Positions 17,290 through 53,876 are shown, counted from the first letter of the stretch. The stretch: DNA of 64,000 bases from Verrucomicrobiota bacterium (GCA_039815375.1 JBCBZJ010000003.1:203512-267511), one strand, 5' to 3'. Notes: generated by a model not told the origin, from the letters alone. Numbers and translations are program-made.

Positions 17290-17305
17290 AGCTTAAGTCG
17301 TGCCA
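17290..17305 (-). promoter_or_regulatory. sigma54 promoter for riboswitch-TonB receptor transcript
   Basis: Minus strand TGGCACGACTTAAGCT (TGGCAC-N5-AAGC, GG-N10-GC); predicted TSS ~17279, ~4 nt before the aptamer. Confidence 0.7.
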
Positions 17306-17355
17306 TTCGAGTCCTAATGGTGATTTTTTGAATAAATATCACCTGATTCACTCAA

Positions 17356-18375: not shown

Positions 18376-18392
18376 GATCGGATGCAGGATTG

Positions 18393-19214: not shown

Positions 19215-19217
19215 AAA

Positions 19218-19991: not shown

Positions 19992-20060
19992 GATCTAAGA
20001 CGGACCACAACGGTCTTGTGTTCTACAACCATCTCGGTTCGTTCAATTTATATTTTCGGC

Positions 20061-21452: not shown

Positions 21453-21476
21453 GGTAGTCGAATCGATAAGGACATA

Positions 21477-21510
21477 AGCAGTTTTTCTGCCATTCGCAAG
21501 AGTGTGCCAA
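21477..21510 (-). promoter_or_regulatory. Tandem sigma54 promoters for oxidoreductase-ABC operon
   Basis: Minus strand TTGGCACACTCTTGCG (21495-21510, consensus) directly followed by TGGCAGAAAAACTGCT (21477-21492). Confidence 0.8.
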
Positions 21511-21561
21511 TTTGACGGCAACTCGGACGCAAGTTGTTATGATGCCAAGTCTGAACCGGAT

Positions 21562-21578
21562 TTGGTATGTCAACTGCT
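21562..21578 (+). promoter_or_regulatory. Divergent sigma54 promoter
   Basis: TTGGTATGTCAACTGCT, GG-N10-GC, upstream of the cytochrome c/SBP/deaminase genes. Confidence 0.65.
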
Positions 21579-21589
21579 AATCGTTCCGA

Positions 21590-23486: not shown

Positions 23487-23599
23487 AGAACATTCAATAA
23501 AAGCTAATTATGCTTACTCTGATTAGCGACACGTGATAATTAAAGTAACGCTTTTATCAATTTATTAGATATACTCTTAGACCTGCTTAATAGAATTCA

Positions 23600-24892
23600 G
23601 TGACAGCAACTCTATATAAGAACGCGCAAGTTCCATCTGCTTTACTCAGTATCCCTGTAGAGGGAATCGCCGAGCCATCGACGGTTTGCGATATCGTAGT
23701 AGCGGAGGGTAGGATTATAGAGATCGCGGAACCGTGTTCTGTGAATCGCACTGACGTGACAGTTGTCGACCTTGACCAGCGGATTGTTTTTCCCGGATTT
23801 CTTGATGCACATGTGCATATCGACAAGGCTTTCAGTTGGGAACGTGCGCCAAATGTCCGTGGCGAATTTTGGGATGCGATCGAACTACTGGGTAAGGACA
23901 AGGATAACTGGACTGCGGAGGATCTTTACCAGCGGGGAACCTTTGCACTGCGATGCGCCGAAGCAAATGGCACTGTTGCGATCAGGACACATGTGGACAC
24001 TTGGATAGGAGGAGGCGAGGTAAGCCATGCAGCGATGCAAACGCTGCGGGAGGAATGGTCCGGTCGCATCCAACTTCAAACTGTGAGCCTTGCCGGCATC
24101 GATCAATACATGGAGCCGGGTGGCCGACGTATGGCTGAGTTTACGATGAGTTATCCGGACTCGCTTTTGGGGGGCATGCCGCAGATGAATCCCGATCTTG
24201 ATCAGCAACTCGACTATTTCTTCGACCTTGCTGCCGAGTATGGCGCTGCGGTCGATTTGCATGTCGATGAAAACGGAAATCCGTATGCCGAATGCCTGCG
24301 CAAAGTTGCTGAAACTGTCCTCCGAAAAGAGTTTCCGCATCCGGTCACCTGCGGGCATGTGTGTAGCCTCGCCGTGCAGGATCCGGAGCGAGCGCTTTCG
24401 ACGCTGCAACTGGTCAAAGAAGCAGGTATTCAAATCATTTCCCTGCCGATGTGTAATCTCTACCTTCAAGGTCGGCCTGCGGAGTCCGGACGGCGCGGCA
24501 CACCTCGCTGGCGAGGGGTCACTCTGCTTCACGAAATGATTGAAGCTGAGATACCTTTTGCCTGTGCCAGTGATAATGTCCGCGATGCGTTCTACGCTTG
24601 GGGTGACTTTGATATGTTCGAAGTCTTTACCCAGAGTATTCGTATCGCTCATTTGGATACAGAAATGGATGCGGCGTGCCGTGCGGTGACGGCTTCGGCT
24701 GCCGATATCATGGGTCTCAAAAATTTCGGATCGATTGAGGTGGGCGCCGATGCGCGACTGGTGGCGTTCGATTCCCGCACGTTCAACGAACTTCTATCAC
24801 GACCAACTCAATCACGTCAGCTCCTGGGCTTTAATTCTGCCGCAGGCAAGAGCCCCGATTACAGCGAACTTGGTGAATTAAAGCGCGTCTGA
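23600..24892 (+). CDS. Cytosine-deaminase-family amidohydrolase (pterin deaminase-like)
   Basis: DAHVHIDK, AIRTHVD, DLHVDE, GHVCSL, ASDNVRDAFYAWGDFD, and the TPRWRGVTLLHE motif of the CodA-like subgroup that clusters with FAD oxidoreductase and creatininase genes. Confidence 0.85.
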   Translation: MTATLYKNAQVPSALLSIPVEGIAEPSTVCDIVVAEGRIIEIAEPCSVNRTDVTVVDLDQRIVFPGFLDAHVHIDKAFSWERAPNVRGEFWDAIELLGKDKDNWTAEDLYQRGTFALRCAEANGTVAIRTHVDTWIGGGEVSHAAMQTLREEWSGRIQLQTVSLAGIDQYMEPGGRRMAEFTMSYPDSLLGGMPQMNPDLDQQLDYFFDLAAEYGAAVDLHVDENGNPYAECLRKVAETVLRKEFPHPVTCGHVCSLAVQDPERALSTLQLVKEAGIQIISLPMCNLYLQGRPAESGRRGTPRWRGVTLLHEMIEAEIPFACASDNVRDAFYAWGDFDMFEVFTQSIRIAHLDTEMDAACRAVTASAADIMGLKNFGSIEVGADARLVAFDSRTFNELLSRPTQSRQLLGFNSAAGKSPDYSELGELKRV

Positions 24893-24919
24893 AGGCGTCA
24901 TCCTAACAAAAAAATAATT

Positions 24920-25426
24920 ATGATACTCATTCGACTTTCAAAAATCCTGCCCGTCCTATCGGTCGCGTTTTTCCTGTTTCTTGTCGTTCTCAACAACCTG
25001 ACGGACTACGGCTCGAACTACCTCTTCGTGGAGAACGTATTGGGTATGACGACTGTCTTCGAAGGCAACCAGCTGATGTGGCGTGCGATTGAAAGTCCTC
25101 TGGTCCATACGGCTTTCTATTTTTCGATCATCCTGTGGGAGGCGGCGGCAATGGCGCTGTGCGCATGGGGTGGATGGAAATTGCTTCAGGTCATCAAGGG
25201 CTCGAAGGCGGAATTTGAGGCTGCAAAGCAAATCGCGATCGCCGGGATTGTCTTGAGCATGCTGCAGTGGTTTGTGGCCTTCATAACGGTTGGCGGCGAG
25301 TGGTTTACGATGTGGCAGTCACAAATCTGGAACGGACAGGATGCCGCCTTCCGCATGTTTGCCTGTCTCGGGATTATACTTATCTTCCTTTATCTGCCTG
25401 AATTCGGAGAAAAGGAAGATGCTTAG
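24920..25426 (+). CDS. DUF2165-family small integral membrane protein
   Basis: NNLTDYGSNYLFVENVLGM, WRAI, GGEWFTMWQSQIWNGQDAAFR. Confidence 0.85.
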   Translation: MILIRLSKILPVLSVAFFLFLVVLNNLTDYGSNYLFVENVLGMTTVFEGNQLMWRAIESPLVHTAFYFSIILWEAAAMALCAWGGWKLLQVIKGSKAEFEAAKQIAIAGIVLSMLQWFVAFITVGGEWFTMWQSQIWNGQDAAFRMFACLGIILIFLYLPEFGEKEDA

Positions 25427-25509
25427 TCGATTTACGAGCTTTGGCCGGTTCGTCCGTAGATCTTAATAAGACGCGTGTTTTGAGTATGGGATATGCTTTG
25501 AAAAAAGAA

Positions 25510-26967
25510 ATGAGAATGACAAGGCTTTGGCTTCGAGCTACTCAGGTTCTGCTTATCCTGTTATTTTTTGATTTTCAGGCCGATGCCGTTACATGGGTCC
25601 GTTCCGACTGCATTCTGACCCTTGCAGATGGTGAGGAGACCCCGATCAATGGCTACCTGAAGATCAGTTCCGAGGGGACAATTGTTGCGATTGAAAGTGG
25701 TGATATTCCCGACGGCGTTACCGGGCGATTTGTGGATGCAATGGGGAAGATCGTGATGCCGGGCTTCGTTTCGGGGCACAACCATCTTTGGCAGAGTGCG
25801 TTTCGAGGTCTGGCAAGTGATCAAGAGCTCTATGGTTGGTTGGAGAGCCTTCACTGGACCTACGGCGATTTCTTCGAAGAGGACGACATGTATACTTTTA
25901 CGCTGTACGGCGCACTGGATCAGCTGGGCCATGGAATCACGACAACGCTTAATCATACCCAGAATATTGCGCCCACGTATGCTCACTATCTCGAGCAATT
26001 CGATGCAGAAATGGACGCGGGGCAGAACTTTGTCTTCTCATATGTGCTCGACCGTAATGAAAAAGACCCGGCACGCCGAAAGGCAAAGTTGGTCGAGCTA
26101 ATGGAGGCAACCGAGGCGATCGAAGATCAACATCCTTGCCTTGGGTTTGGTTTACATGGCGTAGGGGTTTATTTCAGTGCCGAGGTTCACCGCGAAGAGG
26201 TTGCTATCGCCAAGGAGCTCGATCTGGACATGCAGATCCACTACCTTGAAGAAAAAGACCAATCGCTGAAAAAAGGACAAAGTCAGTTTGCTGATCTCCA
26301 TGCGGATGGTGGTGTCTGGGACGGTTTGGTTTATGCGCACTTCATTCACGTAACGGATGAGATTTTGAAGACCTCGGCGGAGGCGGGTGCAAAGATGATT
26401 TGGAATCCTCTCTCAAACGGTCGGTTGGCATCGGGTCTTGCCGATATTCCGCGCTACCTCGATGAAGGTCTTTTGATCGGGATGGGTGTTGACGGAACTG
26501 CCAGTGCCGACGTCTGTGACCCATTCCAAAATATGCGGATGGGTATGTATGCGCTTCGAATGCGCGATTCCGAGGCCAGCGTTATGTCGTGCTATGAGGT
26601 GCTACGACTTCACACCTTGAAAACTGCGGAAGTGCTCGAGGTCGAAGATCGAGTTGGTAGTCTGGAGGTCGGGAAGTATGGGGATTTTCTTGTTGTTGAG
26701 CCAGAGTCTCCGGTTTTTGACCCCTATGCTTCCCTCGTGATGGCGACCAGTGCCGGGGATATTTCTGGAGTCTGGGTTCGCGGTATCGAGCGAGTGCGCC
26801 GAGGAAAGCTGACTGAACATTCGATGAGCAAAGTGAAGAAAGAGATGGTCACCCGCGTTGCGCGAATCGTGGCTGCACAGAAAGTTTCGGCTCAAATGAG
26901 TGGGGGGACTCTTTCGGGCACCTCGGTTTTTCCGGGATGTTTTGGGTGCTGCGGATTGGGGCACTAA
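25510..26967 (+). CDS. Exported amidohydrolase of the guanine/8-oxoguanine/isoxanthopterin/SAH deaminase group
   Basis: MPGFVSGHNHLWQ, QIHYLEE, AHFIH, WNPLSNGRLASG, GMGVDG; signal peptide MRMTRLWLRATQVLLILLFFDFQADA from ATG 25510. Confidence 0.85.
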   Translation: MRMTRLWLRATQVLLILLFFDFQADAVTWVRSDCILTLADGEETPINGYLKISSEGTIVAIESGDIPDGVTGRFVDAMGKIVMPGFVSGHNHLWQSAFRGLASDQELYGWLESLHWTYGDFFEEDDMYTFTLYGALDQLGHGITTTLNHTQNIAPTYAHYLEQFDAEMDAGQNFVFSYVLDRNEKDPARRKAKLVELMEATEAIEDQHPCLGFGLHGVGVYFSAEVHREEVAIAKELDLDMQIHYLEEKDQSLKKGQSQFADLHADGGVWDGLVYAHFIHVTDEILKTSAEAGAKMIWNPLSNGRLASGLADIPRYLDEGLLIGMGVDGTASADVCDPFQNMRMGMYALRMRDSEASVMSCYEVLRLHTLKTAEVLEVEDRVGSLEVGKYGDFLVVEPESPVFDPYASLVMATSAGDISGVWVRGIERVRRGKLTEHSMSKVKKEMVTRVARIVAAQKVSAQMSGGTLSGTSVFPGCFGCCGLGH

Positions 26968-28298
26968 GTTCTCTCTTTCGACGGACTGATCGCTTCCTGA
27001 GGATTGTTAGCGATCCATGAGAGTGCAAATACGATTGGGCAAAACACAATACAAAGCAGAATTGCCGTGGTATAGCCTTTGGTTACTTCGTAGCTGACTC
27101 CAAAGACGAGTGGACCCAAAGCACTGGTGACGACAGTTGCACCCGTCACCCATCCGTTAATTGCACCAAGGTGTTTCCTTCCAAAAAAACGTCCCCACGG
27201 GACGTTAATGAGGACACTGAAGGCTCCCCAGGATATGCCACTGCCTACAATGTAGCACCAACGCCATCCGAGGTCTGAGAAGCTAAGTGCGCCAAGTAGC
27301 GTGAGGCCCTGTGCAAAAACCATCATCGCGAGCATGTACTTTAGTTTAATTCGCTCTGTATAGGCTCCGAGAAGAAAGGTGGTTGCGACTTGAAAGATGA
27401 CCGCCGGCAAAAAGACATCGACTGCTGTTTGCCGGTCGAGCTCGTGTGACGCGGCGAGTCCGACAATATGAAAAGAGATGCCTGTCCCGATCAGTCCGTT
27501 GAGTGCAAGTCCGGCAACGAAGATCCAAAAGGTCCTGGTGCGAATTGCCTCGGAGCTGGAAAAATCTCGAAGCGCGGGAGTGCGGATTTCTGCACGGGAT
27601 TCTGCTTTTACCGGGTCGACCGGCACACCGCAGTCCTCGGGACTGTCGCGAAAGAAAAGGTAGGCGAGTGTGGTCATACCAAAAGCGAAGACTGAACCTA
27701 CGATAATCCATGTTTGTTGCCAACCAATGGAGATGACGAAGCCATTCAAAAGAAGCGGTGCAGAGGAAAAGCTTAACGAAATCATTGTACCGTTGATCGC
27801 TGCGGCAATTCCTCGACGGCCCTCGAACCATCGAAAAACCATCGAGCGGCAGGTTGTCATGGCAAAGCTCAATCCCATTAGGCGCATCCCAAAGAAGGCA
27901 AAGAACACGAGTGCAAGAGCCAGGGGTGCACCGCCAAAGTAGGAGCTCAGTCCAACATAGATTCGATCCAACAGTCCTGTTGCAATCAGGCTAAGGCCCA
28001 GTCCGAAGAAGCTCAGGCACCCCATCGGGCGGGCGCCGATCTGATCGACCAGCCTCCCGGCAAGCGGCGCACAGAGCCCGGCAAGTAGCGTCCCCAGTGT
28101 ATAAGCTATGGCGAAGTTTCCGCGCTCCAATTCCAATGATGAAATCATTTCGTCAACAAAGACGCTCATCCCGGGTGGACTTCCCGGGACTGCTGCAATC
28201 ATGCCGATGGTCCCAACCACAAGAATCGTCCAACCATAGTAACCCGGCCATTTGCGGACGTCGAACGGTCGCTTCGAATCGAAAAGCTTTAGGCGCAT
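26964..28298 (-). CDS. MFS transporter (OFA/MCT-like)
   Basis: YYGWTIL, GRLVDQIGAR, RWFEGRRG, FFGRKHLGAING; ~12 TM. Confidence 0.88.
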   Translation of the reverse strand: MRLKLFDSKRPFDVRKWPGYYGWTILVVGTIGMIAAVPGSPPGMSVFVDEMISSLELERGNFAIAYTLGTLLAGLCAPLAGRLVDQIGARPMGCLSFFGLGLSLIATGLLDRIYVGLSSYFGGAPLALALVFFAFFGMRLMGLSFAMTTCRSMVFRWFEGRRGIAAAINGTMISLSFSSAPLLLNGFVISIGWQQTWIIVGSVFAFGMTTLAYLFFRDSPEDCGVPVDPVKAESRAEIRTPALRDFSSSEAIRTRTFWIFVAGLALNGLIGTGISFHIVGLAASHELDRQTAVDVFLPAVIFQVATTFLLGAYTERIKLKYMLAMMVFAQGLTLLGALSFSDLGWRWCYIVGSGISWGAFSVLINVPWGRFFGRKHLGAINGWVTGATVVTSALGPLVFGVSYEVTKGYTTAILLCIVFCPIVFALSWIANNPQEAISPSKERT

Positions 28299-28423
28299 GG
28301 CATGGATTTCTATTTGCTTGAATGAAGGCGCGGGCGAGAGTCAGAGGGATAGTGGATTGTGGCCGGTCCTAAAACGGCCTGTAGGAACCATCGCTCTCCA
28401 GCGATACGCACCTTTCCGGCAGG

Positions 28424-28816
28424 TTATTTTGCAGGTGCTGCCGCGACGACTTCGATTTCGACGGTAAACTCCTCTCTGGCAAAGCCGGAAACGATGACCA
28501 AGGTTGAAGCGGGAGCTGGTTCGGAAAAGAGTTCGTCACGAACTTTCATGTAGGCAGGCAGGTGTTCCCGTCCGGTAACGAAGGCATTTATCCGAACGAT
28601 ATCCGCCAGATTCATATCTGCGGAGTTGAGAATTGCTTCGACATTTTCGAAACAGAGCCGGGTCTGGGTTTCTGTATCCTCCGGGATTTTTCCGCTCTTT
28701 GTAATTCCGAGTTGGCCCGAGCAAAAAAGGAGCCGAGATCCTTCAGGGATTTCAAGCCCGTGGCTGTATTTTGCGAAAGGGGCGATAATCTCATCTGGCG
28801 TGTGATGTTTGAACAT
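28424..28816 (-). CDS. RidA/YjgF/UK114 family protein
   Basis: YSHG, LFCSGQLG, PASTLVIVSGF, VEIEVVA; ATG at 28816. Confidence 0.9.
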   Translation of the reverse strand: MFKHHTPDEIIAPFAKYSHGLEIPEGSRLLFCSGQLGITKSGKIPEDTETQTRLCFENVEAILNSADMNLADIVRINAFVTGREHLPAYMKVRDELFSEPAPASTLVIVSGFAREEFTVEIEVVAAAPAK

Positions 28817-28878
28817 AGTTTCCCAATTAGGGAGCACTTCAAATACCAATTCGACTATCTACTGATGAAGTGATGAAT

Positions 28879-28895
28879 CTGGTATGGAAGTAGCT
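28879..28895 (+). promoter_or_regulatory. sigma54 promoter of creatininase-family gene
   Basis: CTGGTATGGAAGTAGCT, GG-N10-GC; near-identical to the element at 30927-30943. Confidence 0.6.
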
Positions 28896-28907
28896 CGAAT
28901 GGCAGGC

Positions 28908-29714
28908 ATGGCTACAGAACGCTTTCTCCCCCACATGACTTGGCCCGAGATCAAGAATCTCGATAAAACGAATGCTCTGGTCATTCTTCCGGTCGGGGCA
29001 ACCGAGCAACACGGCCATCATCTTCCGGTCTATACGGATACGCTGATCAGTTCAGGAGTTTTGAGACGGGCTCTGGAAGTCTTACCCGAAGAAGTTCCAG
29101 CCTACATGCTTTCACCGATTACCATTAGCAAAAGCAACGAGCATCGCGGATTTCCAGGGACGCTTTGGATTAGTGCCAAGACGCTCTATGACGTCCTCTT
29201 TGAGATTGGCCGAAGCGTTTATGAATCGGGCTTTCGGAAGATGTGTTTTTTTAATGGGCACGGCGGAAACGTGGGTATTCTACATGCCGTGACTCGCGAC
29301 ATCAGGGATGAGTTTGGCATGACGGTCTTTGCGGGATCGGCCGGCACTTTTCTTGAGTCTCCTGAATTGCCGGACGGGGTCGATGCGCGCGAGAAGAAAT
29401 TCGGAATTCACGCGAACTTTGGAGAGACGGCCCTGATCAAGGCTCTGGCTCCCGAACTCGTTAAGGAGGACAAAGCTCGACCTTGCTTCCCGAACTATCC
29501 GGATTCAGGCATTGGTCTGGTCGGTCCGGGCTACGCACAGTGGAAGACAGAAGACTGGTCATCGACCGGCGTCTTCGGTGACCCGACTCATGTCACCGAA
29601 GAAATCGCAGCAGATTATTTGGACCGTGCCGTCAAAGGAACAGTTCGCTTCCTTACCGAGATGGTTGATTTCGAATATGATCGTCCCAAGATCCAGGATC
29701 GACCTGTAGATTAA
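28908..29714 (+). CDS. Creatininase-family amidohydrolase
   Basis: LPVGATEQHGHHLPVYTD, SNEHRGFPGTL, FNGHGGN, GIHANFGET, GVFGDP; start uncertain (28884-28908). Confidence 0.92.
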   Translation: MATERFLPHMTWPEIKNLDKTNALVILPVGATEQHGHHLPVYTDTLISSGVLRRALEVLPEEVPAYMLSPITISKSNEHRGFPGTLWISAKTLYDVLFEIGRSVYESGFRKMCFFNGHGGNVGILHAVTRDIRDEFGMTVFAGSAGTFLESPELPDGVDAREKKFGIHANFGETALIKALAPELVKEDKARPCFPNYPDSGIGLVGPGYAQWKTEDWSSTGVFGDPTHVTEEIAADYLDRAVKGTVRFLTEMVDFEYDRPKIQDRPVD

Positions 29715-29741
29715 TCTATCTGTTTGTTGCTTAGGGATAGG

Positions 29742-30221
29742 TTATTCTTCACCCGTATAGTAGTCCGCTTCAGTCGGGTAGATACATTCACCCTGCGGTT
29801 TGAGCATTCGCTTCCCGGTGTTCGGATAGGTTGTGATGTCTACCGGATTCTGATCGGCGATGACATAGTAAACCAGGTCAGATGCCGAGTCGTTCATGAT
29901 TTGATGGCTCTCGCCCGGGCAAAAGACAAAATGATCACCTGGTCCGATTTCAGTTGGAGAGTCGGTCGAATCGAAAACAAGTCCGGTTCCCGAAAGAATG
30001 ATGTAGAACTCCGTCTGCGCTGCGTGAGCATGAAGCGGCCAGTTCTTTTTTCCCGGTGGAAGGGTCGCAAGTTCGATATCGAAGGGATGTCCGTTGGCCC
30101 AGGGGCCCTTGTCTTTAATCCCACCGAGTGCGAGCGAGACGTGTTGACGCTGAATTTGAAAATCTCCTTTTGGAGAGGCGACTGTTTCAGTCTCAATTTC
30201 TGATGGGATTACTTTCTTCAT
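29742..30221 (-). CDS. Cupin-domain protein
   Basis: LPPGKKNWPLHAHAAQTEFYIILSGTG...GPGD...PGESHQIMN. Confidence 0.88.
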   Translation of the reverse strand: MKKVIPSEIETETVASPKGDFQIQRQHVSLALGGIKDKGPWANGHPFDIELATLPPGKKNWPLHAHAAQTEFYIILSGTGLVFDSTDSPTEIGPGDHFVFCPGESHQIMNDSASDLVYYVIADQNPVDITTYPNTGKRMLKPQGECIYPTEADYYTGEE

Positions 30222-30906
30222 ATTGATTAGCCCAAGTGAAGACCTGTTCTATCAGAATACGTCCGTCACTGCTGTCTTCCTCATAATCTTCAGGGTGAAA
30301 CTGCACTCCGATAAGCGGTTTGGTTTCGTGCTGGATTGCCTGGATTTTTGTTACTGGGCTGGTTGCGATGGTTTGGAATCCGTCGGGCAGGCTTTTCACT
30401 TCCCAAAAGTGATGTTGGAAGACTTCCATGCGCGCGCTCGCACGATGAAATGCCGTGCCCGGCTTTCGACCTAACTCGATAGAGCAAAATCCTGTTTCTG
30501 AACGCGCCGTTGCTGGAATGATGGGGTCAATTCTCCCTTCGCCGGAGACGGTCTTGTTTCCGATCGGCCCGATGGACGCCCCGTAGGTTTTGGCAAGAAG
30601 CTGGAAGCTGCCGCAAATGCAAAAGGTCGGGTAGCCCGGTGCCCGAAAGTAACTTTGAATCGGTGTGATTTCATCGGCGGCATATTCGCTGTGGTCCATG
30701 TTGTGGCCTGAGAAAATTACTACACGCGGGTTTAGCTCTTCGAGTAGCTTTGCCGAGAATCTGCTGTAATGCAGGAGATAGCAGGGCTCGGCTCCGATTT
30801 CTTCGAAGCGATACTTTGCCGCCACCCGTCGTCTGCAGACTTCCGCCCATAACTCTGGGTGCTCTACACGAAGCTTTTGGTGCTCCATATCAACAAAAAC
30901 ATTCAT
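30193..30906 (-). CDS. Class I glutamine amidotransferase-like / gamma-glutamyl hydrolase-like protein
   Basis: Nucleophile elbow FCICGSFQLL and GVQFHPE His-Glu; no synthase partner adjacent. Confidence 0.82.
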   Translation of the reverse strand: MNVFVDMEHQKLRVEHPELWAEVCRRRVAAKYRFEEIGAEPCYLLHYSRFSAKLLEELNPRVVIFSGHNMDHSEYAADEITPIQSYFRAPGYPTFCICGSFQLLAKTYGASIGPIGNKTVSGEGRIDPIIPATARSETGFCSIELGRKPGTAFHRASARMEVFQHHFWEVKSLPDGFQTIATSPVTKIQAIQHETKPLIGVQFHPEDYEEDSSDGRILIEQVFTWANQYEESNPIRN

Positions 30907-30926
30907 AGAATTCGAGCACTCTACGG

Positions 30927-30943
30927 AGCTACTTTCGTTCCAG
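30927..30943 (-). promoter_or_regulatory. sigma54 promoter of GATase-cupin pair
   Basis: Minus strand CTGGAACGAAAGTAGCT, GG-N10-GC, ~20 nt upstream of ATG 30906. Confidence 0.6.
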
Positions 30944-31011
30944 AAAATCCTGTACCGCAGCCTGCGGAGGAGATTTTTTATCGGCTGATCGAACTTTGCC
31001 GGGCTAGCGGC

Positions 31012-44501: not shown

Positions 44502-46010
44502 ATGAACTCACTTCGACATTTTGCTCTTGGAGAGCCATTTCCAGCCAGTCCACATGCAGTGATCAGCTGCCTGCCGACGATGGCTGACGTGTGTGGCTAC
44601 GAGGAGCATGATCCACGAGTCATGGATGTGATGAAGTCGGGCTACCCGCGATTCGTGGTGCATGAATTTGTGCAACAGCTCATCGGATTTTATGCGGATC
44701 GTGAATCCTTGGCGGGGCGTTATGCGCGATTGGTTTCAGGTCGGCGTGCAGCGAATGACATGCTCGAATGGCTGGGTGAGGGCTTCGTGAAGCTGGAAGT
44801 AGATGAGTCGGTTTACCTGATCCACTGTGATGCGTCTGATGAACAACGTTCTCATGACGTGCGCAAGTTTGTCCAGCATACGGGCTGCGGTATTTCTTCC
44901 CGACAGGCGGAGGATCTACTGATTCAGCACGGTCTTCGGGAAAAGCGGTTTGCCGAGGAGTCGTTTGCCGGGAATGCGCTTTCCGAGGTCGAAGCTAAAT
45001 TGGCTAAACAGATTGGTTGTCGGCAATCGGATGTCTTGGTCTGCGCTTCCGGGATGAATGCGTTTTACGCCAGCTTTCGCGCTATACAGGAGTTTCAGCA
45101 AAGCCGTAAACGCACGGCTTGGGTCCAGCTGGGTTGGCTCTATCTTGATTCAGGTAAGATTTTGGCGCAGTATCTTTCTGAAGGAGAGAGTCTGGAATGC
45201 ATCTATGACGTATTTGATGTGGATGCGGTGCTTGCTCGAATTCATGAGCTGGGTGATTCGCTCGCTGCTGTTGTGGTTGAGTGTCCGTCGAACCCTTTGA
45301 TTCAAGTCTGTGAGCTCCGTCGTATTGCAACCGCAGTTCGTGAGCAGGGCGGTGCAATGCTCGTCGATCCGACCATTGCGTCGGTCTATAATACGGATGT
45401 TCTGGCATCCACCGATATTCTGACCACGAGTTTAACGAAGTATGCGGCGATTGAGGGCGACGTCATGATTGGTGCTTTGGCGGTGAACCCGGATTCGCCG
45501 TTTTATGGGGATCTGGTTTTGAGAACATCCAGCTTTCATGTGCCGCCCTATGCGCGTGACTTGGCTCGACTCGCCTATGAGATGGAACTCGCTCCGGCAA
45601 TCATTGAGAAAATGAATGCCAACGCTGCGAAGCTCTGCGCATATCTTAGGCAACACAAGGCAGTGAAAAAAATCTATTGTGCCGGTTGCTCGGAGCATTT
45701 CGAAGAAGTCTCGAGGCAAGATGTTCCGGCCGGCGCCGTTATCTCCATCGAGTTGGAAGGTGATATTGGGAAATTCTATGACTCGGTTCGTTTGATGAAG
45801 GGACCGAGCTTTGGCACCTGCTACACTTTACTGTGCCCGTTCATGTATCTGGCACACTATGACCTTGTGACTTCAGAAGACGGTCGGGCGTTCCTGAAGA
45901 GTGTTGGGATCGATCCAGAGCTCATCCGTATATCGGTAGGCGGGGAGCCTTATGAGCAAATCGAGGCGGTGTTTGCAGAGGCGCTGGATAGCAACTCAGG
46001 CGACTGTTGA
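44502..46010 (+). CDS. Cys/Met-metabolism PLP enzyme, cystathionine gamma-synthase-like (long N-terminal extension)
   Basis: HAVISCLPT..GYEE..GYPRF, SGMNA, ECPSNPL, TSLTKY (PLP Lys), KGPSFGT, IRISVG. Confidence 0.82.
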   Translation: MNSLRHFALGEPFPASPHAVISCLPTMADVCGYEEHDPRVMDVMKSGYPRFVVHEFVQQLIGFYADRESLAGRYARLVSGRRAANDMLEWLGEGFVKLEVDESVYLIHCDASDEQRSHDVRKFVQHTGCGISSRQAEDLLIQHGLREKRFAEESFAGNALSEVEAKLAKQIGCRQSDVLVCASGMNAFYASFRAIQEFQQSRKRTAWVQLGWLYLDSGKILAQYLSEGESLECIYDVFDVDAVLARIHELGDSLAAVVVECPSNPLIQVCELRRIATAVREQGGAMLVDPTIASVYNTDVLASTDILTTSLTKYAAIEGDVMIGALAVNPDSPFYGDLVLRTSSFHVPPYARDLARLAYEMELAPAIIEKMNANAAKLCAYLRQHKAVKKIYCAGCSEHFEEVSRQDVPAGAVISIELEGDIGKFYDSVRLMKGPSFGTCYTLLCPFMYLAHYDLVTSEDGRAFLKSVGIDPELIRISVGGEPYEQIEAVFAEALDSNSGDC

Positions 46011-46137: not shown

Positions 46138-46154
46138 TTGGAACTATTATTGCT
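46138..46154 (+). promoter_or_regulatory. sigma54 promoter of pyrimidine catabolic operon
   Basis: TTGGAACTATTATTGCT, GG-N10-GC with TTGC. Confidence 0.7.
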
Positions 46155-46167
46155 TAGGGTCCTGTAA

Positions 46168-47562
46168 ATGCTTTACACGATTGAGGATAAACCTCCCTGG
46201 CCCTCGTCGGTAGTGCTCGGTTTTCAGCACTATCTGACAATGTTTGGGTCAACTGTGGCCATCCCGCTTCTGCTCCAATCTCACCTTGGTGCGTCGCAGG
46301 CTGAGTTGGCGCTACTCATTAGCACGATGTTTCTGGTCAGTGGGATTTCAACGCTTTTGCAGACAACTTTTGGCTCTCGGCTACCGATTGTTCAGGGCGG
46401 GACATTTTCGTTTCTCGGTCCGGCTATCGCTATTTGCGGTATGGCATCACTTGTGGATGCGGGCTTCGAAATGAAGATGCGGCATATTCAAGGAGCGGTG
46501 ATCGCCGGCGCTTTCTTTGAGATGGCGATTGGCTTTGGTGGTTTGATGGGGCGTATCCTGAAATTCATTACGCCGGTCACCATTGCGCCGACGATTGCGC
46601 TGATCGGCCTTGCCCTTTTCAAGTTTGGCGCCCCGGTGGCAGGTGAGTATTGGGCCATCGGTGGGCTCACGATTTTCCTACTGATTCTCTTCAGCCAATA
46701 TCTGAAGAAGGTCCATCCATTGATCGGTTTGTTCCCGGTCTTGCTTGGGCTTCTTCTCGCCTGGTTGGTGGCATCTGTTCTTTCGTGGTCGGGTGTTTTC
46801 ACGGTGGGCCACCCCGCTTATGCTGGTTTCGGTGCGGTTAAAGAAGCACCTTGGTTTAGAGTGCCGACTCCTTTTCAGTGGGGAATGCCGATTTTTGGAG
46901 TGGCTGCCATCGTGGGTATGTTGTCCGGCTACATTGCCAGTATGATTGAATCTACCGGAGATTACTTTGCTGCAGCCCGGATGGCCAAAGCTCCAACTCC
47001 TGATTCCAAAACGGTTAATCGTGGCATTGGCTTTGAAGGGATCGGATGTCTTGTCGCGGGAATATTTGGAACGGGCAATGGCACGACGTCCTACTCGGAG
47101 AATATCGGGGCGATTGGATTGACGAGAGTAGGCAGTCGAAGAGTGATCCAGGCAGCTGGTGTGCTTATGCTGGGCTTCGCTATCTTCGGAAAGTTTGGTG
47201 CGCTCTTCGTTTCAATTCCGAGTCCGATTGTCGGGGGCATGTATTGCGTTATGTTCGCGATGGTGACCGGGGTCGGTCTCTCGAATCTGCAGTTCATTGA
47301 CCTGAACTCCCCGAGGAATCTTTTCATCGTCGGCTTTTCTCTTTTTTCCGGTCTATCCGTTCCCGAGTATGTCGGTGCAAATGCGGAAATGGTTGCAGGG
47401 CTTTTCCCGGAAGCATTCCAATGGTTGGGTGGTATTTTAATAACAATTGGAAGCTCAGGAATGGCAGTTGGAGCCTTTCTTGCTCTGGTGCTCGATAATA
47501 CAATTCCCGGAACCGATGCGGAGCGCGGTATTGAATCTTTCTTATCCTCAAAAAACCAATAA
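46168..47562 (+). CDS. NCS2/NAT (SLC23-like) nucleobase permease
   Basis: GFQHYLTMFG, RLPIVQGGTFSF, signature TTSYSENIGAIGLTRVGSRRV. Confidence 0.92.
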   Translation: MLYTIEDKPPWPSSVVLGFQHYLTMFGSTVAIPLLLQSHLGASQAELALLISTMFLVSGISTLLQTTFGSRLPIVQGGTFSFLGPAIAICGMASLVDAGFEMKMRHIQGAVIAGAFFEMAIGFGGLMGRILKFITPVTIAPTIALIGLALFKFGAPVAGEYWAIGGLTIFLLILFSQYLKKVHPLIGLFPVLLGLLLAWLVASVLSWSGVFTVGHPAYAGFGAVKEAPWFRVPTPFQWGMPIFGVAAIVGMLSGYIASMIESTGDYFAAARMAKAPTPDSKTVNRGIGFEGIGCLVAGIFGTGNGTTSYSENIGAIGLTRVGSRRVIQAAGVLMLGFAIFGKFGALFVSIPSPIVGGMYCVMFAMVTGVGLSNLQFIDLNSPRNLFIVGFSLFSGLSVPEYVGANAEMVAGLFPEAFQWLGGILITIGSSGMAVGAFLALVLDNTIPGTDAERGIESFLSSKNQ

Positions 47563-47575
47563 CCCAAGACAAGCT

Positions 47576-48445
47576 ATGGCTGAGATAATCAAGGCAGGTC
47601 TGATACAGGCTTCATCCACACATTCCGGCGCGGAAGATCCCGGTCTTATTCGCGATGCAATGATCGAAAAACACCTTGCAATGATCGGCGAAGCAGCTGC
47701 CGAAGGTGTTCAAGTGCTCTGTTTGCAGGAGCTTTTTTATGGTCCATACTTTTGTGCGGAGCAGGATATCCGTTGGTATGAGATTACCGAGCAGATTCCT
47801 GATGGGCCCACGACGCAGCTGATGTGTGAGATCGCGAAAAAGCACCAGATGGTATTGATCGTTCCAATCTACGAGGTGGATGTTGAAGGAATCTACTACA
47901 ATACCGCCGCAGTGATCGATGTGGATGGTACCTATCTCGGCAAATATCGGAAGAATCATATCCCGCATTGTCATCCTGGTTTTTGGGAGAAATTCTACTT
48001 CCGCCCGGGTAATCTCGGCTATCCTGTTTTCAAGACCAAGGTCGGAACGATAGGCGTTTATATCTGTTACGACCGGCACTTCCCGGAAGGTGCCCGGGCG
48101 CTTGCGCTGAACGGGGCTGAGATGGTGTTTAATCCATCGGCGACAGTTGCAGGCCTCAGTGAGTATCTCTGGAAGCTGGAGCAACCGGCACACTGCGTGG
48201 CGAACGGGTATTTCCTCGGAGCAATTAATCGTGTCGGGACAGAGGCACCCTGGGGTATCGGCGAGTTCTACGGACAGTCGTATTTCTGTAATCCTCGTGG
48301 GCAGCTAATTGCTGAAGCTTCACGGGATCAGGATGAGCTTCTTGTTGCTGACATCAATCTCGCCCAGATCCGCGAAGTTCGCGATACTTGGCAATTCTTT
48401 CGGGACCGCCGTCCGGAATCCTACGGCCCCCTGGTTCAGCCCTAG
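47576..48445 (+). CDS. Beta-ureidopropionase (nitrilase superfamily)
   Basis: [42 protein letters not shown]; operon context; ATG at 47576. Confidence 0.88.
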
Positions 48446-48465
48446 TAAAAATCGGTTTCGTTTTT

Positions 48466-49797
48466 ATGGCTACGCTGCCTCCATTTGAATTTTCACCAAA
48501 GCCCTATTCGGGTCCCAGCTTCGATGAGGTCATGTGCTTGCGCAAAGCACACCTGACACCGGCTTTGGTCACCTACTACGAAAAGCCGGTGATGCTTGTG
48601 GAGGGTAAAATGCAGTATCTTTTCGATGAGACAGGCCGACGATACCTTGATGCCTTCGCCGGGATTGTGACGGTGAGCTGCGGGCATTCTCACCCTAAGA
48701 TCAACGCGGCTGCGCACGATCAAATCGATACGCTAGTTCACAGCACGACCATCTATCCACATCCGGAAGTGGCGAAATATGGTGAGGCATTGGCCGCAAA
48801 GATGCCGGGCGACCTATCTGTGTGTTACTTTGTCAATTCCGGTTCGGAAGCAAACGATTTGGCCCTTCTGATGGCTAGGCTCTATACCGGAAACTACGAC
48901 CTGATCGCTTTGCGGAACTGTTACCACGGCGGCTCGCAGTCGACCATGGGACTCACTGCTCACGGGACGTGGAAATATAACACACCGCAGGGCTTTGGTA
49001 TTCACCATGCGCTCAATCCGGATCCGTATCGAGGCCCCTTTGCGGACCACAAGGATCAGGCCACGGATTACGCAAACGATGTGAAGGAGTTGATCGAATT
49101 TGCGACACCGGGCCAGGTTGCCGGCTTCATTGCCGAGTCGATTCAGGGAGTTGGGGGTGCCGTTGTCTTCCCGGATGGATATCTGAAACAGGCCTACGAA
49201 ATCGTCCGATCTCATGGAGGCGTTTGCATCGCTGATGAGGTTCAGGCTGGATTTGGAAGAACCGGTAGCCATTACTGGGGTTTCGAGGAACAAGGCGCTC
49301 AGCCGGATATTGTCGTGATGGCAAAGGGTATTGGAAATGGCTTTCCGCTCGCTGCGGTTGTGACGACACCGGAAATTGCGAATGCTCTGACTTCCCACAT
49401 TCACTTCAACACCTTTGGTGGTAACCCTTTTATCTCACGAGTGGGGCGTGCTGTGCTCGAGGCGATTGATGAAGACGAACTACAGAAGAACAGTGCGGTC
49501 GTTGGGGGATATCTCATCGAGAAATTGAAACAGCTTGAGGCGAAATACGACCTCATCGGTGAAGTTCGTGGTCGTGGTCTGATGCTGGGAATCGAACTGG
49601 TCTCTGACCGGGCAAGCAAGACTCCCGCTGCCACGGAGTGCGCGGAGATCTGGAACCGGTGCAAGGACCTCGGGTTGCTGCTTGGAAAGGGTGGTCTCTT
49701 TGGCAACGTCCTCCGAATCAAACCGCCGATGTGTATCACCAAGGCGGATGCTGACTTCATGCACGACGTTTTGGATGAAGTGCTTCAAACCATTTAA
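48466..49797 (+). CDS. Class III aminotransferase, AGXT2/PYD4-like (beta-alanine aminotransferase)
   Basis: [64 protein letters not shown] at 48466. Confidence 0.9.
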
Positions 49798-49815
49798 ACA
49801 AAAGAAAGGAAAAAT

Positions 49816-50943
49816 ATGAGCACATTGGAAACAACAGTTGATGGACTTAAAATGAAGAACCCTTTTGTTATCGGATCGGGCCCTCCCGGGACGAACGTGC
49901 GGGTCATCAACCGCGCTTTCAAGGAGGGCTGGGGAGGTGTTATTGCAAAGACGATCAGTCTCGATTCCTCAAAGGTTGTGAATGTCGGTCCGCGCTATGC
50001 GAAGCTACATGCTAACGATGGCAAGGAAGTCATCGGTTGGGAGAACATCGAACTCATTAGTGACCGGCCTTTCGAAAAGTGGCTCGATGAATTCAAGGAA
50101 AGCAAGGACTTGTATCCGGACGGAGTCCTCATCGCGTCGATCATGGAGGAATACAACAAGGACGCCTGGTGCGAGATCGTTGAGAGATGCCAGGATGTCG
50201 GTGTTGATGCCTTCGAGCTTAACTTTTCCTGTCCGCACGGTCTGCCCGAACGGAAAATGGGCGCTGCGATGGGCCAGGACCCCGAGATCCTGGAGGAAGT
50301 TTGTTCCTGGGTTAACGAGGTGGCAACCATCCCTGTTTGGGCGAAGATGACTCCGAATGTCACCCACATTGAGGAGCCTACCCGTGCCGCGCTGGCCGCC
50401 GGGTGCGAGGGAATAAGTGCAATTAATACCATTCGGTCCGTGATGGGAATTGACCTCAAGACGCTCCGTCCGATGCCGACAGTCGAGGGCTATACCACTC
50501 CGGGTGGCTATTCATCGAAAGCGGTTAAGCCGATTGCGCTTCGTATGGTTATGGAAATCGCGCAACTCATCCGCTCGGAATTTTCAGGCAGAACGATTTC
50601 GGCCATTGGTGGCGTCGAGACTGGGTATGACGCGGCTGAGTTTATCCTGATGGGTGGTGACACGGTTCAGGTCTGCACTGGCGTGATGAAGTTTGGCTAC
50701 AAGCATGTGCAAAAGATGTGTGACGAGCTCCTCGAATTCATGGAGGAGAAGGGTTTTGAAACAATTGATGAATTCAAAGGCCATGCCCTCGATTACTTCA
50801 CGACGCATGCAGAGCTGGTTCGGATGCAGACCGAGCGAAAGGCTGCAGAGAAGGCGGCTAAGGAATCTGCGATGCTCACCAAGGATGGCGAGTGGGACGG
50901 CGATGACTTCGTGAAACAGTCCAACGAACTGGCGGGGAATTAG
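49816..50943 (+). CDS. preA: Dihydropyrimidine dehydrogenase FMN subunit, lacking C-terminal 4Fe-4S domain
   Basis: NPFVIGSGPPGTN, NIELISDRP, NFSCPHG, WAKMTPN, VQVCTGVM; no CxxCxxC motifs. Confidence 0.9.
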   Translation: MSTLETTVDGLKMKNPFVIGSGPPGTNVRVINRAFKEGWGGVIAKTISLDSSKVVNVGPRYAKLHANDGKEVIGWENIELISDRPFEKWLDEFKESKDLYPDGVLIASIMEEYNKDAWCEIVERCQDVGVDAFELNFSCPHGLPERKMGAAMGQDPEILEEVCSWVNEVATIPVWAKMTPNVTHIEEPTRAALAAGCEGISAINTIRSVMGIDLKTLRPMPTVEGYTTPGGYSSKAVKPIALRMVMEIAQLIRSEFSGRTISAIGGVETGYDAAEFILMGGDTVQVCTGVMKFGYKHVQKMCDELLEFMEEKGFETIDEFKGHALDYFTTHAELVRMQTERKAAEKAAKESAMLTKDGEWDGDDFVKQSNELAGN

Positions 50944-50947
50944 AGGA

Positions 50948-52441
50948 ATGTCGCTTAAGCCATGCCCCATCCTGATTGATGGCCATTGGTCGGTTCCTGA
51001 AACGGAGAAGACCAGTCCTGTCCACAATCCTTCGACTGGCGAAATCATCGCGGAAGTCCCCCACTGCGGTGAGGATGTCGTCGCCTCTGCGGTGGATGCT
51101 GCGAAGCGGGCGTTTAACCATTGGTGGCAGACGCCTCCGATCAATCGCGTCCGCATTCTTATGCGTTACTGCGCGCTACTTGAGGAGAACTTCGAGGAGC
51201 TCGTCGAAATGATCGTAATCGAGCATGGAAAGACGCGAACCGAGGCACGCGGGGATCTTCGGCGCGGAATTGAGGTGGCGGAGTATGCCTGTGGAATCAC
51301 CGACATGCTCAAAGGCGAAGTGCTCGAGAATGTTGCGGCCGGGATTGACTGTTCAATGGTTCGTCAGCCAATTGGAGTCTGCGTTGGTATCTGTCCATAT
51401 AACTTTCCCGCGCTTGTCCCGATGTGGATGTATCCCATGGCACTTGCGTGTGGAAACTGTTTCATTCTCAAGCCGAGCGAAAAGGTCCCGCTTACGGGGA
51501 TTCGATTAATCGAACTTCTCGAGGAAGCAGGCTTGCCTGCTGGTGTTTTCTCGGTCGTTCACGGAGGCAAAGAATGTGTCGACGCCTTATTGACTCATCC
51601 GGATGTGGCGGCGATTTCATTTGTTGGAAGCTCGCCGGTGGCTGAGTACATCCACAGAACCGGAACTGCGAACGGAAAGCGGGTGCAGGCGGCAGGCGGC
51701 GCGAAGAACTTTGTCGTTGTGATGCCTGATGCAGAGTTTGGTAAAGCGGTCGAGGGCCTGACCGATGCTGCTTTCGGATGTTCTGGACAGCGTTGTATGG
51801 CAGGGTCGACAGCCGTTACAGTTGGCGATGCTTCCGAGCGATTCATTCCGGCGATTGCTGACTCTGCGGCATCTCTCGCGGTGGGGCCGACACACCTTTC
51901 TCAAGCTGCAAAACTCGGTGGAGTGATTACACCACAGCACCGGGAACGAATCGTCTCGCTAATTGGATCTGCGGTCGAGGAGGGCGGTGAGCTAATTGTT
52001 GATGGACGTGCGGTTACGGTGGGCGACTATCCGGAAGGATTCTACCTTGGTGCCTCGGTCGTCGACCGCGTGACGACGGAAATGACGATTTTCCGAGAAG
52101 AGGTGTTTGGACCTGTCTTGAACGTAATGAGAATGGATGGTCTCGACGAAGCTCTTGATCTGGCCTCGAGAGTCGCTTTCGGAAACGGTGCGTGCATCTA
52201 CACTCAGAACGGTCGAATTGCCCGCGAGTTTCGTCACCGGGTCAAAGCCGGGATGGTTGGCGTCAACGTTGGCGTGCCGGCACCGCTCGCCTATTTCCCA
52301 TTTTCAGGATGGGATTATTCCTTTTTTGGCGACTTGCATCTGCAGGGCCGTGAGTCCGTGCTTTTTTTCACGCGCGCCAAGGTCTACACTGAAAGATGGT
52401 TCGCTTCTGGCGAAGGTGACATCTGGCATAAAGACGACTAA
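50948..52441 (+). CDS. mmsA: CoA-acylating (methyl)malonate-semialdehyde dehydrogenase
   Basis: PYNFPALVP, KPSEKVP, GAKNF, FGCSGQRCMAGS, EEVFGPV, GVNVGVPAP. Confidence 0.9.
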   Translation: MSLKPCPILIDGHWSVPETEKTSPVHNPSTGEIIAEVPHCGEDVVASAVDAAKRAFNHWWQTPPINRVRILMRYCALLEENFEELVEMIVIEHGKTRTEARGDLRRGIEVAEYACGITDMLKGEVLENVAAGIDCSMVRQPIGVCVGICPYNFPALVPMWMYPMALACGNCFILKPSEKVPLTGIRLIELLEEAGLPAGVFSVVHGGKECVDALLTHPDVAAISFVGSSPVAEYIHRTGTANGKRVQAAGGAKNFVVVMPDAEFGKAVEGLTDAAFGCSGQRCMAGSTAVTVGDASERFIPAIADSAASLAVGPTHLSQAAKLGGVITPQHRERIVSLIGSAVEEGGELIVDGRAVTVGDYPEGFYLGASVVDRVTTEMTIFREEVFGPVLNVMRMDGLDEALDLASRVAFGNGACIYTQNGRIAREFRHRVKAGMVGVNVGVPAPLAYFPFSGWDYSFFGDLHLQGRESVLFFTRAKVYTERWFASGEGDIWHKDD

Positions 52442-52457
52442 CCCCAAGTTACATACC

Positions 52458-53876
52458 ATGTCTATTTTAATTAAGAACGGTGAAATCGTGACCGCTACGG
52501 ATCGGTTTACGGCCGACATTTATTGTGAGGGCGAAATCATTTCGGAGATCGGCTCGAATCTGGATAAAAAGGCTGACGAAATCATCGATGCGACCGGACA
52601 GTATGTCTTTCCAGGTTTCATTGATCCTCATGTGCACATCTACCTTCCGTTCATGGGCACGTATTCAAAAGACAACTACAAAACAGCAAGTAAAGCTGCC
52701 TTGATCGGCGGGACGACGACCTTGATCGAGATGTGTTGTCCGTCGAGAGCGGAAGAGCCGATAGAGGCGTTGAAGCTGTGGAACTCGAAAGCTGAAGGTC
52801 TCTCGGCTTGTGACTACACTTTCCACATGGGAGTGACGCGTTTTGATGAAGAGGCTGAAGCGCAGCTTCGGGCCATTGTATCTGAATACGGCATCACCTC
52901 CTTCAAAGTGTTTCTAGCTTACAAAGGCGCGTTCGGAATCGATGATGAAGAACTCTACGCCACGCTGAAGCTTGCTAAAGAGCTCGGTGTCGTGGTGACT
53001 GCACATTGCGAGAATGCCGACCTGGTTATGCAGACACAGGCGGCACTTGTGGCCGAGGGAAAAGTCGGCCCGGAGTGGCATGAGCCTTCGAGGCCGGTGG
53101 CGGTGGAAGCCGAAGGATGCCACCATTTGATGACCTTTGCCGAGATGACGGGCGCGAAGGTTTATGTGGTTCACACGTCCTGCAAGCCAGCAGTCGAAGT
53201 TATTGAATCGGCAAGGAAGCGAGGCGTGAAGGTGGGCATTGAAACGGTTATACCTTACCTTGTCTTAGATAGTTCTTTTGCCGAACAGCCGAATTTTGAG
53301 GGTGCGAAGTATGTCATGTCTCCGCCGATTCGTTCGAAGGAACATCAGGAATATCTCTGGGAGAAACTAGCAGACGGAACCATTGACACGGTGGGAACCG
53401 ATCACGCGCCTTTTGACTTTGAAACGCAAAAACACATGGGGCACCCGGATCCGGAAAAGGCGCTTAATGCTGATTTTTCTAAGCGTGGTGAGGGAGCAGA
53501 TTTCACATTGATCCCCAATGGGATTCCAAGTGTGGAGGACCGTGTTAACCTGCTCTACACCTACGGCGTATTGGAGGGCAGGATCAGCCTGCAGCAGTTC
53601 GTTGCATTAGCTTCGACCAGTGCGGCGAAGCAATTCGGGCTCTACCCTCGAAAGGGAGCCATTCAACCTGGCGCCGACGCCGATCTCGTCATCTATGATC
53701 CAAAGTATGAAGGTTTCATTTCCGCTGCAACCCACTCCATGAACACCGACTATTCTGGATTTGAAGGTATGCCAATAAAGGGAAAACCGAGCTGGGTGAC
53801 GGTTCGTGGCAAGGTCTGCATCCGCGAGGGAAAATTCGATGGCACTTTCGGCCACGGGCAACTTCTCAAGCGGTGA
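52458..53876 (+). CDS. hydA: Dihydropyrimidinase
   Basis: PGFIDPHVH, GGTTT, SFKVFLAYK, HCEN, YVVH, GTDHAPF, IPNGIP; ATG at 52458. Confidence 0.92.
   Translation: MSILIKNGEIVTATDRFTADIYCEGEIISEIGSNLDKKADEIIDATGQYVFPGFIDPHVHIYLPFMGTYSKDNYKTASKAALIGGTTTLIEMCCPSRAEEPIEALKLWNSKAEGLSACDYTFHMGVTRFDEEAEAQLRAIVSEYGITSFKVFLAYKGAFGIDDEELYATLKLAKELGVVVTAHCENADLVMQTQAALVAEGKVGPEWHEPSRPVAVEAEGCHHLMTFAEMTGAKVYVVHTSCKPAVEVIESARKRGVKVGIETVIPYLVLDSSFAEQPNFEGAKYVMSPPIRSKEHQEYLWEKLADGTIDTVGTDHAPFDFETQKHMGHPDPEKALNADFSKRGEGADFTLIPNGIPSVEDRVNLLYTYGVLEGRISLQQFVALASTSAAKQFGLYPRKGAIQPGADADLVIYDPKYEGFISAATHSMNTDYSGFEGMPIKGKPSWVTVRGKVCIREGKFDGTFGHGQLLKR

Follow-up and report, generated by a model that had tools for sequence, protein, structure and literature searches.

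A bacterial iron–sulfur-free dihydropyrimidine dehydrogenase of plant PYD1 type in a predicted verrucomicrobial pyrimidine degradation operon, and where its electrons may come from

How a dihydropyrimidine dehydrogenase that lacks iron–sulfur (Fe-S) clusters obtains its electrons is the question raised by a six-gene cluster in a 64,000-nucleotide stretch of DNA from a Verrucomicrobiota bacterium (GCA_039815375.1 JBCBZJ010000003.1:203512-267511; host genome label G000), the whole of which is called the window here. The question is familiar from plants, where PYD1 starts the breakdown of uracil and thymine, and where the missing electron source has blocked the measurement of its activity (PMC2713857, PMC3223058, PMC9930899). 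The fourth gene of the cluster, pydA, encodes an enzyme of this plant type, a flavin mononucleotide (FMN) barrel with no Fe-S domain. The other genes of the operon belong to the extended Pyd pathway, which is already known, and it is the bacterial Fe-S-free PYD1-type enzyme as the first step of that pathway that is new; neither such an enzyme nor a named plant donor was found in a literature search that covered mostly open-access papers and their main texts. The bacterial form makes a fifteen-year-old plant question testable in a simple system. Its cultured carriers include Haloferula luteola, Luteolibacter marinus and Roseibacillus persicicus, their PydA has no transit peptide, and since no PreT/GltD-type domain was found in some of them, biochemical assays or genetics can be used to look for the donor.

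PydA aligns with residues 536-851 of pig dihydropyrimidine dehydrogenase (DPD), i.e., the FMN domain, and in this alignment its Cys139 falls on pig Cys671, in a loop that all of 239 close relatives retain. Residues K45, T46, N77, E79 and N136 correspond to pig K574, T575, N609, E611 and N668, and S138, C139, K177, N204 and T205 to S670, C671, K709, N736 and T737; apart from C671, we take these pig residues to have roles in the FMN and uracil sites. The seven cysteines of PydA are scattered (119, 125, 139, 163, 197, 287 and 302), the CxxCxxCxxxC ferredoxin motif is found neither in PydA nor in any of the 239 close relatives, and Pfam reports DHO_dh only, with no flavin adenine dinucleotide (FAD)/NADPH domain and no Fe-S domain. 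Databases name the protein PreA because it passes the cut-off of the NCBIfam PreA profile PRK08318 (410.5 bits against 335), a match that spans profile positions 1-331 of 422 only, and among the database entries called ‘PreA’ is a widespread Fe-S-free class, removed by the filters of earlier surveys. Its AlphaFold model (pLDDT, the predicted local distance difference test score, 94) shows a TIM barrel and, after it, helices at 331-352 and 362-374, the part past residue 350 being modelled at pLDDT 55-64, and the top fold match is pig DPD (1GTH) at a root-mean-square deviation of 1.8 Å. What replaces the ferredoxin domain is a C-terminal tail that shares a W-x-G-D-x-F motif with plants and contains a long basic helix; it aligns with proteins of Asimina, Salix, Closterium, Citrus and Haematococcus. 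In a charge survey the net charge of the tail helix was positive in 49 of 53 rows, and K53, K63, K147 and R218 are basic residues specific to the PydA clade. A sequence-only reading of this DNA had described a PreA of 375 aa that lacks ferredoxin motifs and had quoted its C-terminus, all of which was borne out. Four divergent Fe-S-free PydA-like proteins (P0259, P0306, P0309 and P0310; 36-44% identity) have a related tail and altered active-site loops, and possibly act on other substrates.

The resemblance to plant and algal proteins extends over the tail, with identities of 60% over 96% of the length for Citrus, 58% over 98% for Asimina and 53% over 99% for Haematococcus, the plant records compared being imperfect gene models from outside Arabidopsis and rice. 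Fe-S-containing PreA proteins, in contrast, are 41-49% identical to PydA, in alignments that end near residue 330, with a maximum of 49% over 88% of the length. The main tree was built from 320 barrel columns, with the tail excluded, and from 40 of 60 rows once frameshifted and redundant ones were removed. Green plants and algae (five named rows and four further rows assigned by the tree) formed a clade with support of 99/99, sister to Verrucomicrobiota plus three further bacterial rows at 88/100, and a wider Fe-S-free clade with Myxococcota and metagenome rows was supported at 87/94; a FastTree analysis of 98 rows agreed (support 0.92 and 0.99). At the level of sequence, then, PydA is kin to plant PYD1 and does not group with canonical PreA, and the view of it as a bacterial model of the plant protein is upheld. 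The further claim, that it is a relative of the donor of the plant pathway, fared less well: a Verrucomicrobiota-related donor is favoured, though not established, for the PYD1 gene alone (88/100), whereas a tree in which all 24 bacterial PYD1-type rows were forced together was not rejected (log-likelihood lower by 18.7; approximately unbiased test, p-AU 0.08). The tree sampled neither complete Planctomycetota nor red-algal or cyanobacterial sequences; Planctomycetota and Acidobacteriota are common members of the Atlas clusters, and a second homologue search gave Kofleriaceae/Myxococcales.

Plant and green-algal PYD1 (DPYD; At3g17810, OsDHPD) is thus like PydA in consisting of the FMN barrel without FAD, NADPH or Fe-S domains and in its C-terminal tail, and it differs in that the bacterial protein, known here from sequence, has no transit peptide and is encoded next to the other enzymes of the pathway, all of them in one operon. 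Fusions of PYD1-type proteins were set aside, since the four long plant and algal records look like mis-joined gene models and the one with a complex I 75-kDa protein (P0123) is a single record; no bacterial PYD1-type fusion occurred among the best 120 long homologues. One record titled Candidatus Sulfotelmatobacter (L071), from the same phylum sample as G000, has a PydA that nests within Verrucomicrobiota, and its title is probably a mislabel.

The FMN domain is homologous to that of E. coli PreT-PreA (PydA1-PydA2), a form that occupies the same kind of operon in relatives (G060, G032, G110 and G132), but PydA has no C-terminal 2[4Fe-4S] ferredoxin domain, no PreT and a clade of its own. The extended Pyd clusters of Bacillus megaterium and Lysinibacillus (Zhu 2020 and Yin 2019, as cited in PMC7332683) have the same set of PydA, PydB, PydC, beta-alanine aminotransferase, semialdehyde dehydrogenase and permease, leading from uracil to acetyl-CoA, but their PydA1/PydA2 has two subunits and four Fe-S clusters where the window has a single Fe-S-free chain. 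The clostridial PydAc, like PydA, has no FAD/NAD(P)H module and relies on an external electron source, but it keeps ferredoxin domains and belongs to strict anaerobes (PMC7332683). The PydAc survey, as described there, demanded a [4Fe-4S] domain, and therefore the Fe-S-free PYD1 form was left out of it.

The absence of preT, asserted in the sequence-only reading for the operon, was upheld genome-wide, with no cognate preT elsewhere. The host genome is 99.89% complete, and its sole match to Fer4_20, the PreT/GltD-type domain, is a 495-aa GltD directly 3' of a 1550-aa GltB; with the PreT of G060 as query, three verified PreT genes scored 61-63%, the PreT of G132 38% and the host GltD 27-34%. No PreT/GltD-like gene was found in 80 Verrucomicrobiota loci or 80 metagenome loci, of which 63 and 30, respectively, reach at least 9 kb (metagenome median 5.8 kb). 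In 50 of the 80 carriers whole genomes were surveyed, mostly metagenome-assembled genomes of unstated completeness: 20, three isolates included, had no Fer4_20 match, and in the other 30 the best match was a GltD beside GltB in 24, an unlinked GltD/PreT-like protein in five and another protein in one. Three further carriers, each 99% complete, also gave no PreT/GltD match. The shortness of many loci, the quality of the genomes, the classification of only 30 of 48 Fer4_20 matches, and the five carriers whose unlinked protein is 32-39% identical to PreT all count against a partner-free enzyme. These data bear most directly on the proposal that the partner is a PreT-like flavoprotein with a second job, GltD or another (and, in plants, the part of NADH-GOGAT that resembles GltD), which would suit the GltD of the host, the 24 carriers with GltD beside GltB and the five with an orphan protein. 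However, the domain was not found in the 20 of 50 carriers or in the three 99%-complete ones, and PydA lacks the C-terminal clusters by which PreA would be bridged to such a partner; GltD was rejected on the former ground, and we consider the proposal very improbable.

No other redox family recurs near pydA in the 80 Verrucomicrobiota and 80 metagenome loci, and a Pfam scan of 138 of 160 picked neighbouring open reading frames (ORFs) turned up one formate-dehydrogenase cluster (L171) but no redox family that occurred repeatedly. What does recur is the pathway itself. In the Verrucomicrobiota loci, (methyl)malonate-semialdehyde dehydrogenase (MSDH) was found in 52, PydB in 46, the aminotransferase in 36, an M20-type PydC in 34, an NCS1 permease in 29 and a nitrilase PydC in eight; in the metagenome loci (at least 100 bits) the counts were 48 for nitrilase PydC, 28 for NCS1, 26 for PydB and 20 for MSDH. 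A RidA-family gene lies in 14 of the 80 metagenome pyd loci (L145, L173, L176, L181 and L188 among them), where RidA may perhaps clear an enamine by-product of the aminotransferase, and in L005, L006, L008, L070 and L073 the pyd genes are adjoined by xanthine dehydrogenase-, uricase- and XdhC-like genes, which we take to serve purine catabolism.

Among 201 genomes of the phylum, the PYD1 type occurs in five, the host included, and matches of 36-46% in 20, with the Fe-S motif confirmed in six of these. In G060, G032, G110 and G132, preT adjoins preA among the pathway genes, and because the pathway clusters of these relatives hold preT-preA instead, the two forms fill one operon slot. The PYD1-type gene was not found in eight same-genus or 100 same-family genomes, and at the syntenic site of G066 two upstream genes common to the host are followed by another gene, the block being absent. 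Locus L005 has the six genes in identical order at 80-90% identity, and PydA is nearer to that of Roseibacillus (87%) than to those of same-order carriers (72-74%); its close homologues with a named source come from Verrucomicrobiota, which fits the assignment of the host. It is likely from these comparisons that the six-gene block arrived by transfer without a redox partner, and after such an acquisition the electrons should come from a component that was in the recipient cell beforehand. Third-position GC content in the operon (0.54-0.64, against 0.56 +/- 0.07 for a genome reference set that includes shadow ORFs) is typical, and so gives no compositional sign of recent transfer. No PydA relative was found on viral contigs, and plasmids gave Fe-S-type matches only, below 50%.

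A partner-free gene might simply encode a self-sufficient enzyme. Like tRNA-dihydrouridine synthases and old yellow enzymes, it would follow a ping-pong mechanism in which NAD(P)H enters the substrate site and reduces the FMN directly, and the neighbouring MSDH would regenerate the NADH. The lack of a partner in any locus, the transfer as a bare gene, the presence of MSDH, often as the next gene, in those 52 of 80 loci, and a Dus match on 11-54% of Atlas cluster members are all in keeping with this. The uracil pocket, however, is as in pig DPD, whose NADPH site is separate, and the plant enzymes speak against it: the rice protein had no activity with NADPH or NADH (PMC9930899), and Arabidopsis PYD1 targeted to the cytosol was inactive despite the NAD(P)H there, a ‘plastidic cofactor’ being needed (PMC3223058). 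No activity of plant PYD1 could be measured in earlier work either, and a missing partner was postulated (PMC2713857), while a search of plant databases for PreT was unsuccessful (PMC9930899) and the available text of PMC10415118 is silent on the donor. The plant data argue against direct reduction by NAD(P)H, as far as such weak negatives go, obtained as they were with truncated, tagged protein or given as ‘data not shown’ (PMC9930899, PMC3223058, PMC2713857), and self-sufficiency seems to us decidedly unlikely.

Since pydA is partner-free and mobile, it must draw on a general electron source, and we judge the chances to be about even that this is a free housekeeping ferredoxin, and not a dedicated subunit, that reduces the FMN. 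In the host the candidate is a 78-aa single-cluster Fer4_13 protein (G000:C59:34866-35099) of net charge -18. A small acidic ferredoxin of this kind would bind at the place that the C-terminal ferredoxin domain, lost from PydA, takes up in PreA, would reduce the FMN in two one-electron steps and would itself be re-reduced by a NAD(P)H flavoprotein of the FNR family; the stromal ferredoxin of plastids would play the same role, ferredoxin being plastid-specific in plants. A Fer4_13 ferredoxin is present in 40 of 40 carriers, acidic in all 30 that were read (net charge -7 to -18). The same 40 carriers all have a NAD-binding module of the FNR family, and in three genomes a Fer4_13 gene lies within 1-2 kb of one or two FNR-family genes (G338:C5:60774-63297, G339:C10:39901-42427 and G349:C94:783-2059). 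Four carriers (L231-L234; G081, G204, G099 and G203) have GltB with no GltD downstream or genome-wide, a hint that a ferredoxin-dependent glutamate synthase possibly operates in heterotrophic Verrucomicrobiota. The clade-specific basic residues and the basic tail helix of PydA also count in favour of the model. Precedent comes from the Clostridium PydAc, in which uracil reduction was driven by ferredoxin (PMC7332683).

Several observations pull the other way. The same ferredoxin occurs in five of five genomes that have no PYD1-type gene, so that it is housekeeping and its presence only permits the ferredoxin model, and none lies in the pydA loci. No stand-alone FNR was found in the host, where PF00175 matched three proteins, each a CysJ-like diflavin of about 600 aa, nor was a pyruvate/2-oxoacid:ferredoxin oxidoreductase, present in 28 of 40 carriers, which was dropped as the ferredoxin reducer for that reason. 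The plastid ferredoxin is a [2Fe-2S] protein whose fold differs from Fer4_13. Lastly, PydAc needs its own [4Fe-4S] clusters for activity (PMC7332683), and PydA has none. As a further candidate donor a stand-alone [2Fe-2S] ferredoxin was rejected: the host has one (C11, 86 aa), and no short Fer2 frame was found in G203 or G204. A side observation in the host is an unusual GltB-like fusion, a protein of 2000 aa that contains a glutamate-synthase FMN domain and is followed by a CysJ-like diflavin gene (G000:C62:171973-179803).

The general source could instead be an unlinked NAD(P)H flavoprotein that reduces the FMN without ferredoxin, whether a CysJ-like diflavin protein, an FNR-family reductase, a flavodoxin, or a flavin reductase that gives free FMNH2, as in the supply of monofunctional chorismate synthase. 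The host has the three CysJ-like proteins and one flavodoxin, the FNR-family module of the 40 carriers would serve here equally, the plastid requirement is compatible, and recombinant PydAc required added FMN, so that the flavin may exchange (PMC7332683). Against it, the FMN-binding residues of PydA are fully kept, as for a bound cofactor, a flavin reductase recurs in none of the 160 loci, and no more than 27 of the 40 carriers have a flavodoxin domain that passes its cut-off; G338, G339 and G349, with their ferredoxin and FNR-family genes, have no flavodoxin/CysJ domain. Flavodoxin/CysJ was rejected as a universal donor on the 27 of 40, and the unlinked flavoprotein as a whole strikes us as rather unlikely.

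All of the above supposes that PydA reduces uracil. It might run in reverse and oxidize dihydrouracil, as the fungal enzyme does, or act on another substrate, as a dihydroorotate dehydrogenase (DHODH), given that class 1 DHODH likewise consists of the barrel only (template modelling score, TM, 0.73) and that a reductant site is not visible. However, PydA falls short of the DHODH profiles (TIGR01037, 186 against a cut-off of 270 bits; PRK07259, 181 against 269), the host has its own class 2 DHODH, and pydA shares its operon with the downstream hydrolases. The rice enzyme, moreover, had no DHODH activity (PMC9930899), and plant pyd1 mutants fail on uracil and still degrade dihydrouracil (PMC3223058), and we give this alternative hardly any credence. 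The third DHO_dh match in the host genome is a lone DHODH-like protein, 24% identical to PydA (G000:C47:4344-5351).

On the ferredoxin reading a broader picture can be drawn, which we hold tentatively, as possible if somewhat doubtful: PydA and PYD1 would form a fourth class of dihydropyrimidine dehydrogenase, Fe-S-free FMN barrels reduced directly by free ferredoxin, which spread in aerobic Verrucomicrobiota, Myxococcota, Acidobacteriota and Planctomycetota in replacement of preT-preA. The ancestor of green plants would have received its copy from a relative of the Verrucomicrobiota, and plastid ferredoxin would power the enzyme there. If this were true, it would answer a question that has stood since 2009, namely which donor supplies electrons to plant PYD1.

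That the six genes form one operon for the degradation of uracil and thymine is, as a pathway assignment alone, highly probable. They are all on the + strand, separated by 13, 20, 18, 4 and 16 bp in order, and include the complete extended Pyd set of PydA, PydB, PydC, a predicted beta-alanine aminotransferase and MSDH (Table 1). In the predicted sequence of events the permease would import the base (from its family), PydA would reduce the 5,6 double bond with FMNH2 and with Cys139 as the acid (a conserved site, with chemistry borrowed from pig DPD), PydB would open the ring (its family cut-off is passed), and PydC would release beta-alanine, NH3 and CO2, as its nearest solved relative does. 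By analogy with the published extended Pyd pathway, the aminotransferase would then yield malonate semialdehyde, which MSDH would convert to acetyl-CoA, CO2 and NADH.

Table 1. Genes of the pyrimidine degradation operon and features of PydA (positions in the window)
Feature	Position	Strand	Length (aa)	Basis
NCS2/NAT permease, SLC23-like branch; predicted uracil/thymine uptake	46168..47562	+	464	Pfam Xan_ur_permease
PydC, nitrilase-type beta-ureidopropionase	47576..48445	+	289	CN_hydrolase
Class III aminotransferase, AGXT2/PYD4 type; predicted beta-alanine aminotransferase (PydD role)	48466..49797	+	443	Aminotran_3
PydA, plant PYD1 type, FMN TIM barrel only, no Fe-S domain	49816..50943	+	375	
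Active-site loop of PydA, N136-F-S-C139-P-H141	50221..50238	+		Alignment to 1GT8 and C671A/C671S mutant chains
C-terminal tail of PydA, residues 327-375, in place of ferredoxin domain	50794..50943	+		Alignments, model, charge survey
MSDH, CoA-acylating (methyl)malonate-semialdehyde dehydrogenase	50948..52441	+	497	TIGR01722, 617 bits (cut-off 448.5)
PydB, dihydropyrimidinase	52458..53876	+	472	TIGR02033, 525 bits (cut-off 393)

The tight operon of the sequence-only reading was recovered with all six genes co-oriented and in the order it gave, and of its span, 46138..53876, the end stood and the start moved to the permease ATG at 46168, which has an in-frame TAA directly 5' of it. Its view of the permease as SLC23/NAT-like agrees with the nearest solved structure, SLC23A1 (E 4e-118, against 3e-17 for UraA). 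Likewise, its AGXT2-like aminotransferase is supported by nearest-neighbour matches, with plant aminotransferases outside the comparison: the nearest solved structure is human ethanolamine-phosphate phospho-lyase (E 3e-111), which we take to be an AGXT2-family protein, and the Atlas clusters bear the name alanine-glyoxylate transaminase. Beta-alanine is a putative substrate. The nearest solved structures to PydC are beta-ureidopropionases (Drosophila, E 2e-61; human, E 1e-57), its score is under the AguB cut-off, and a separate paralogue, 45% identical, lies on contig C36 of the host genome. A promoter and terminator scan stayed at chance level (3 against 5.5 and 11 against 8.2).

Upstream of the operon, positions 44502-46010 of the window encode a Cys/Met-family pyridoxal phosphate enzyme (top NCBIfam match BesB, 310 bits against a cut-off of 800), which belongs to the host backbone, outside the operon, because G066 has the same gene. 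Farther away, the ORFs at about 17300-31000, resembling an ABC transporter, a substrate-binding protein, a deaminase, a creatininase and RidA, presumably may scavenge another nucleobase derivative, and positions 1-5306 (- strand, continuing past the window; G000:C62:201768-208817) encode a 2350-aa protein whose start, similar to RHS/YD-repeat (SpvB-like) proteins, we take to be polymorphic-toxin-like.

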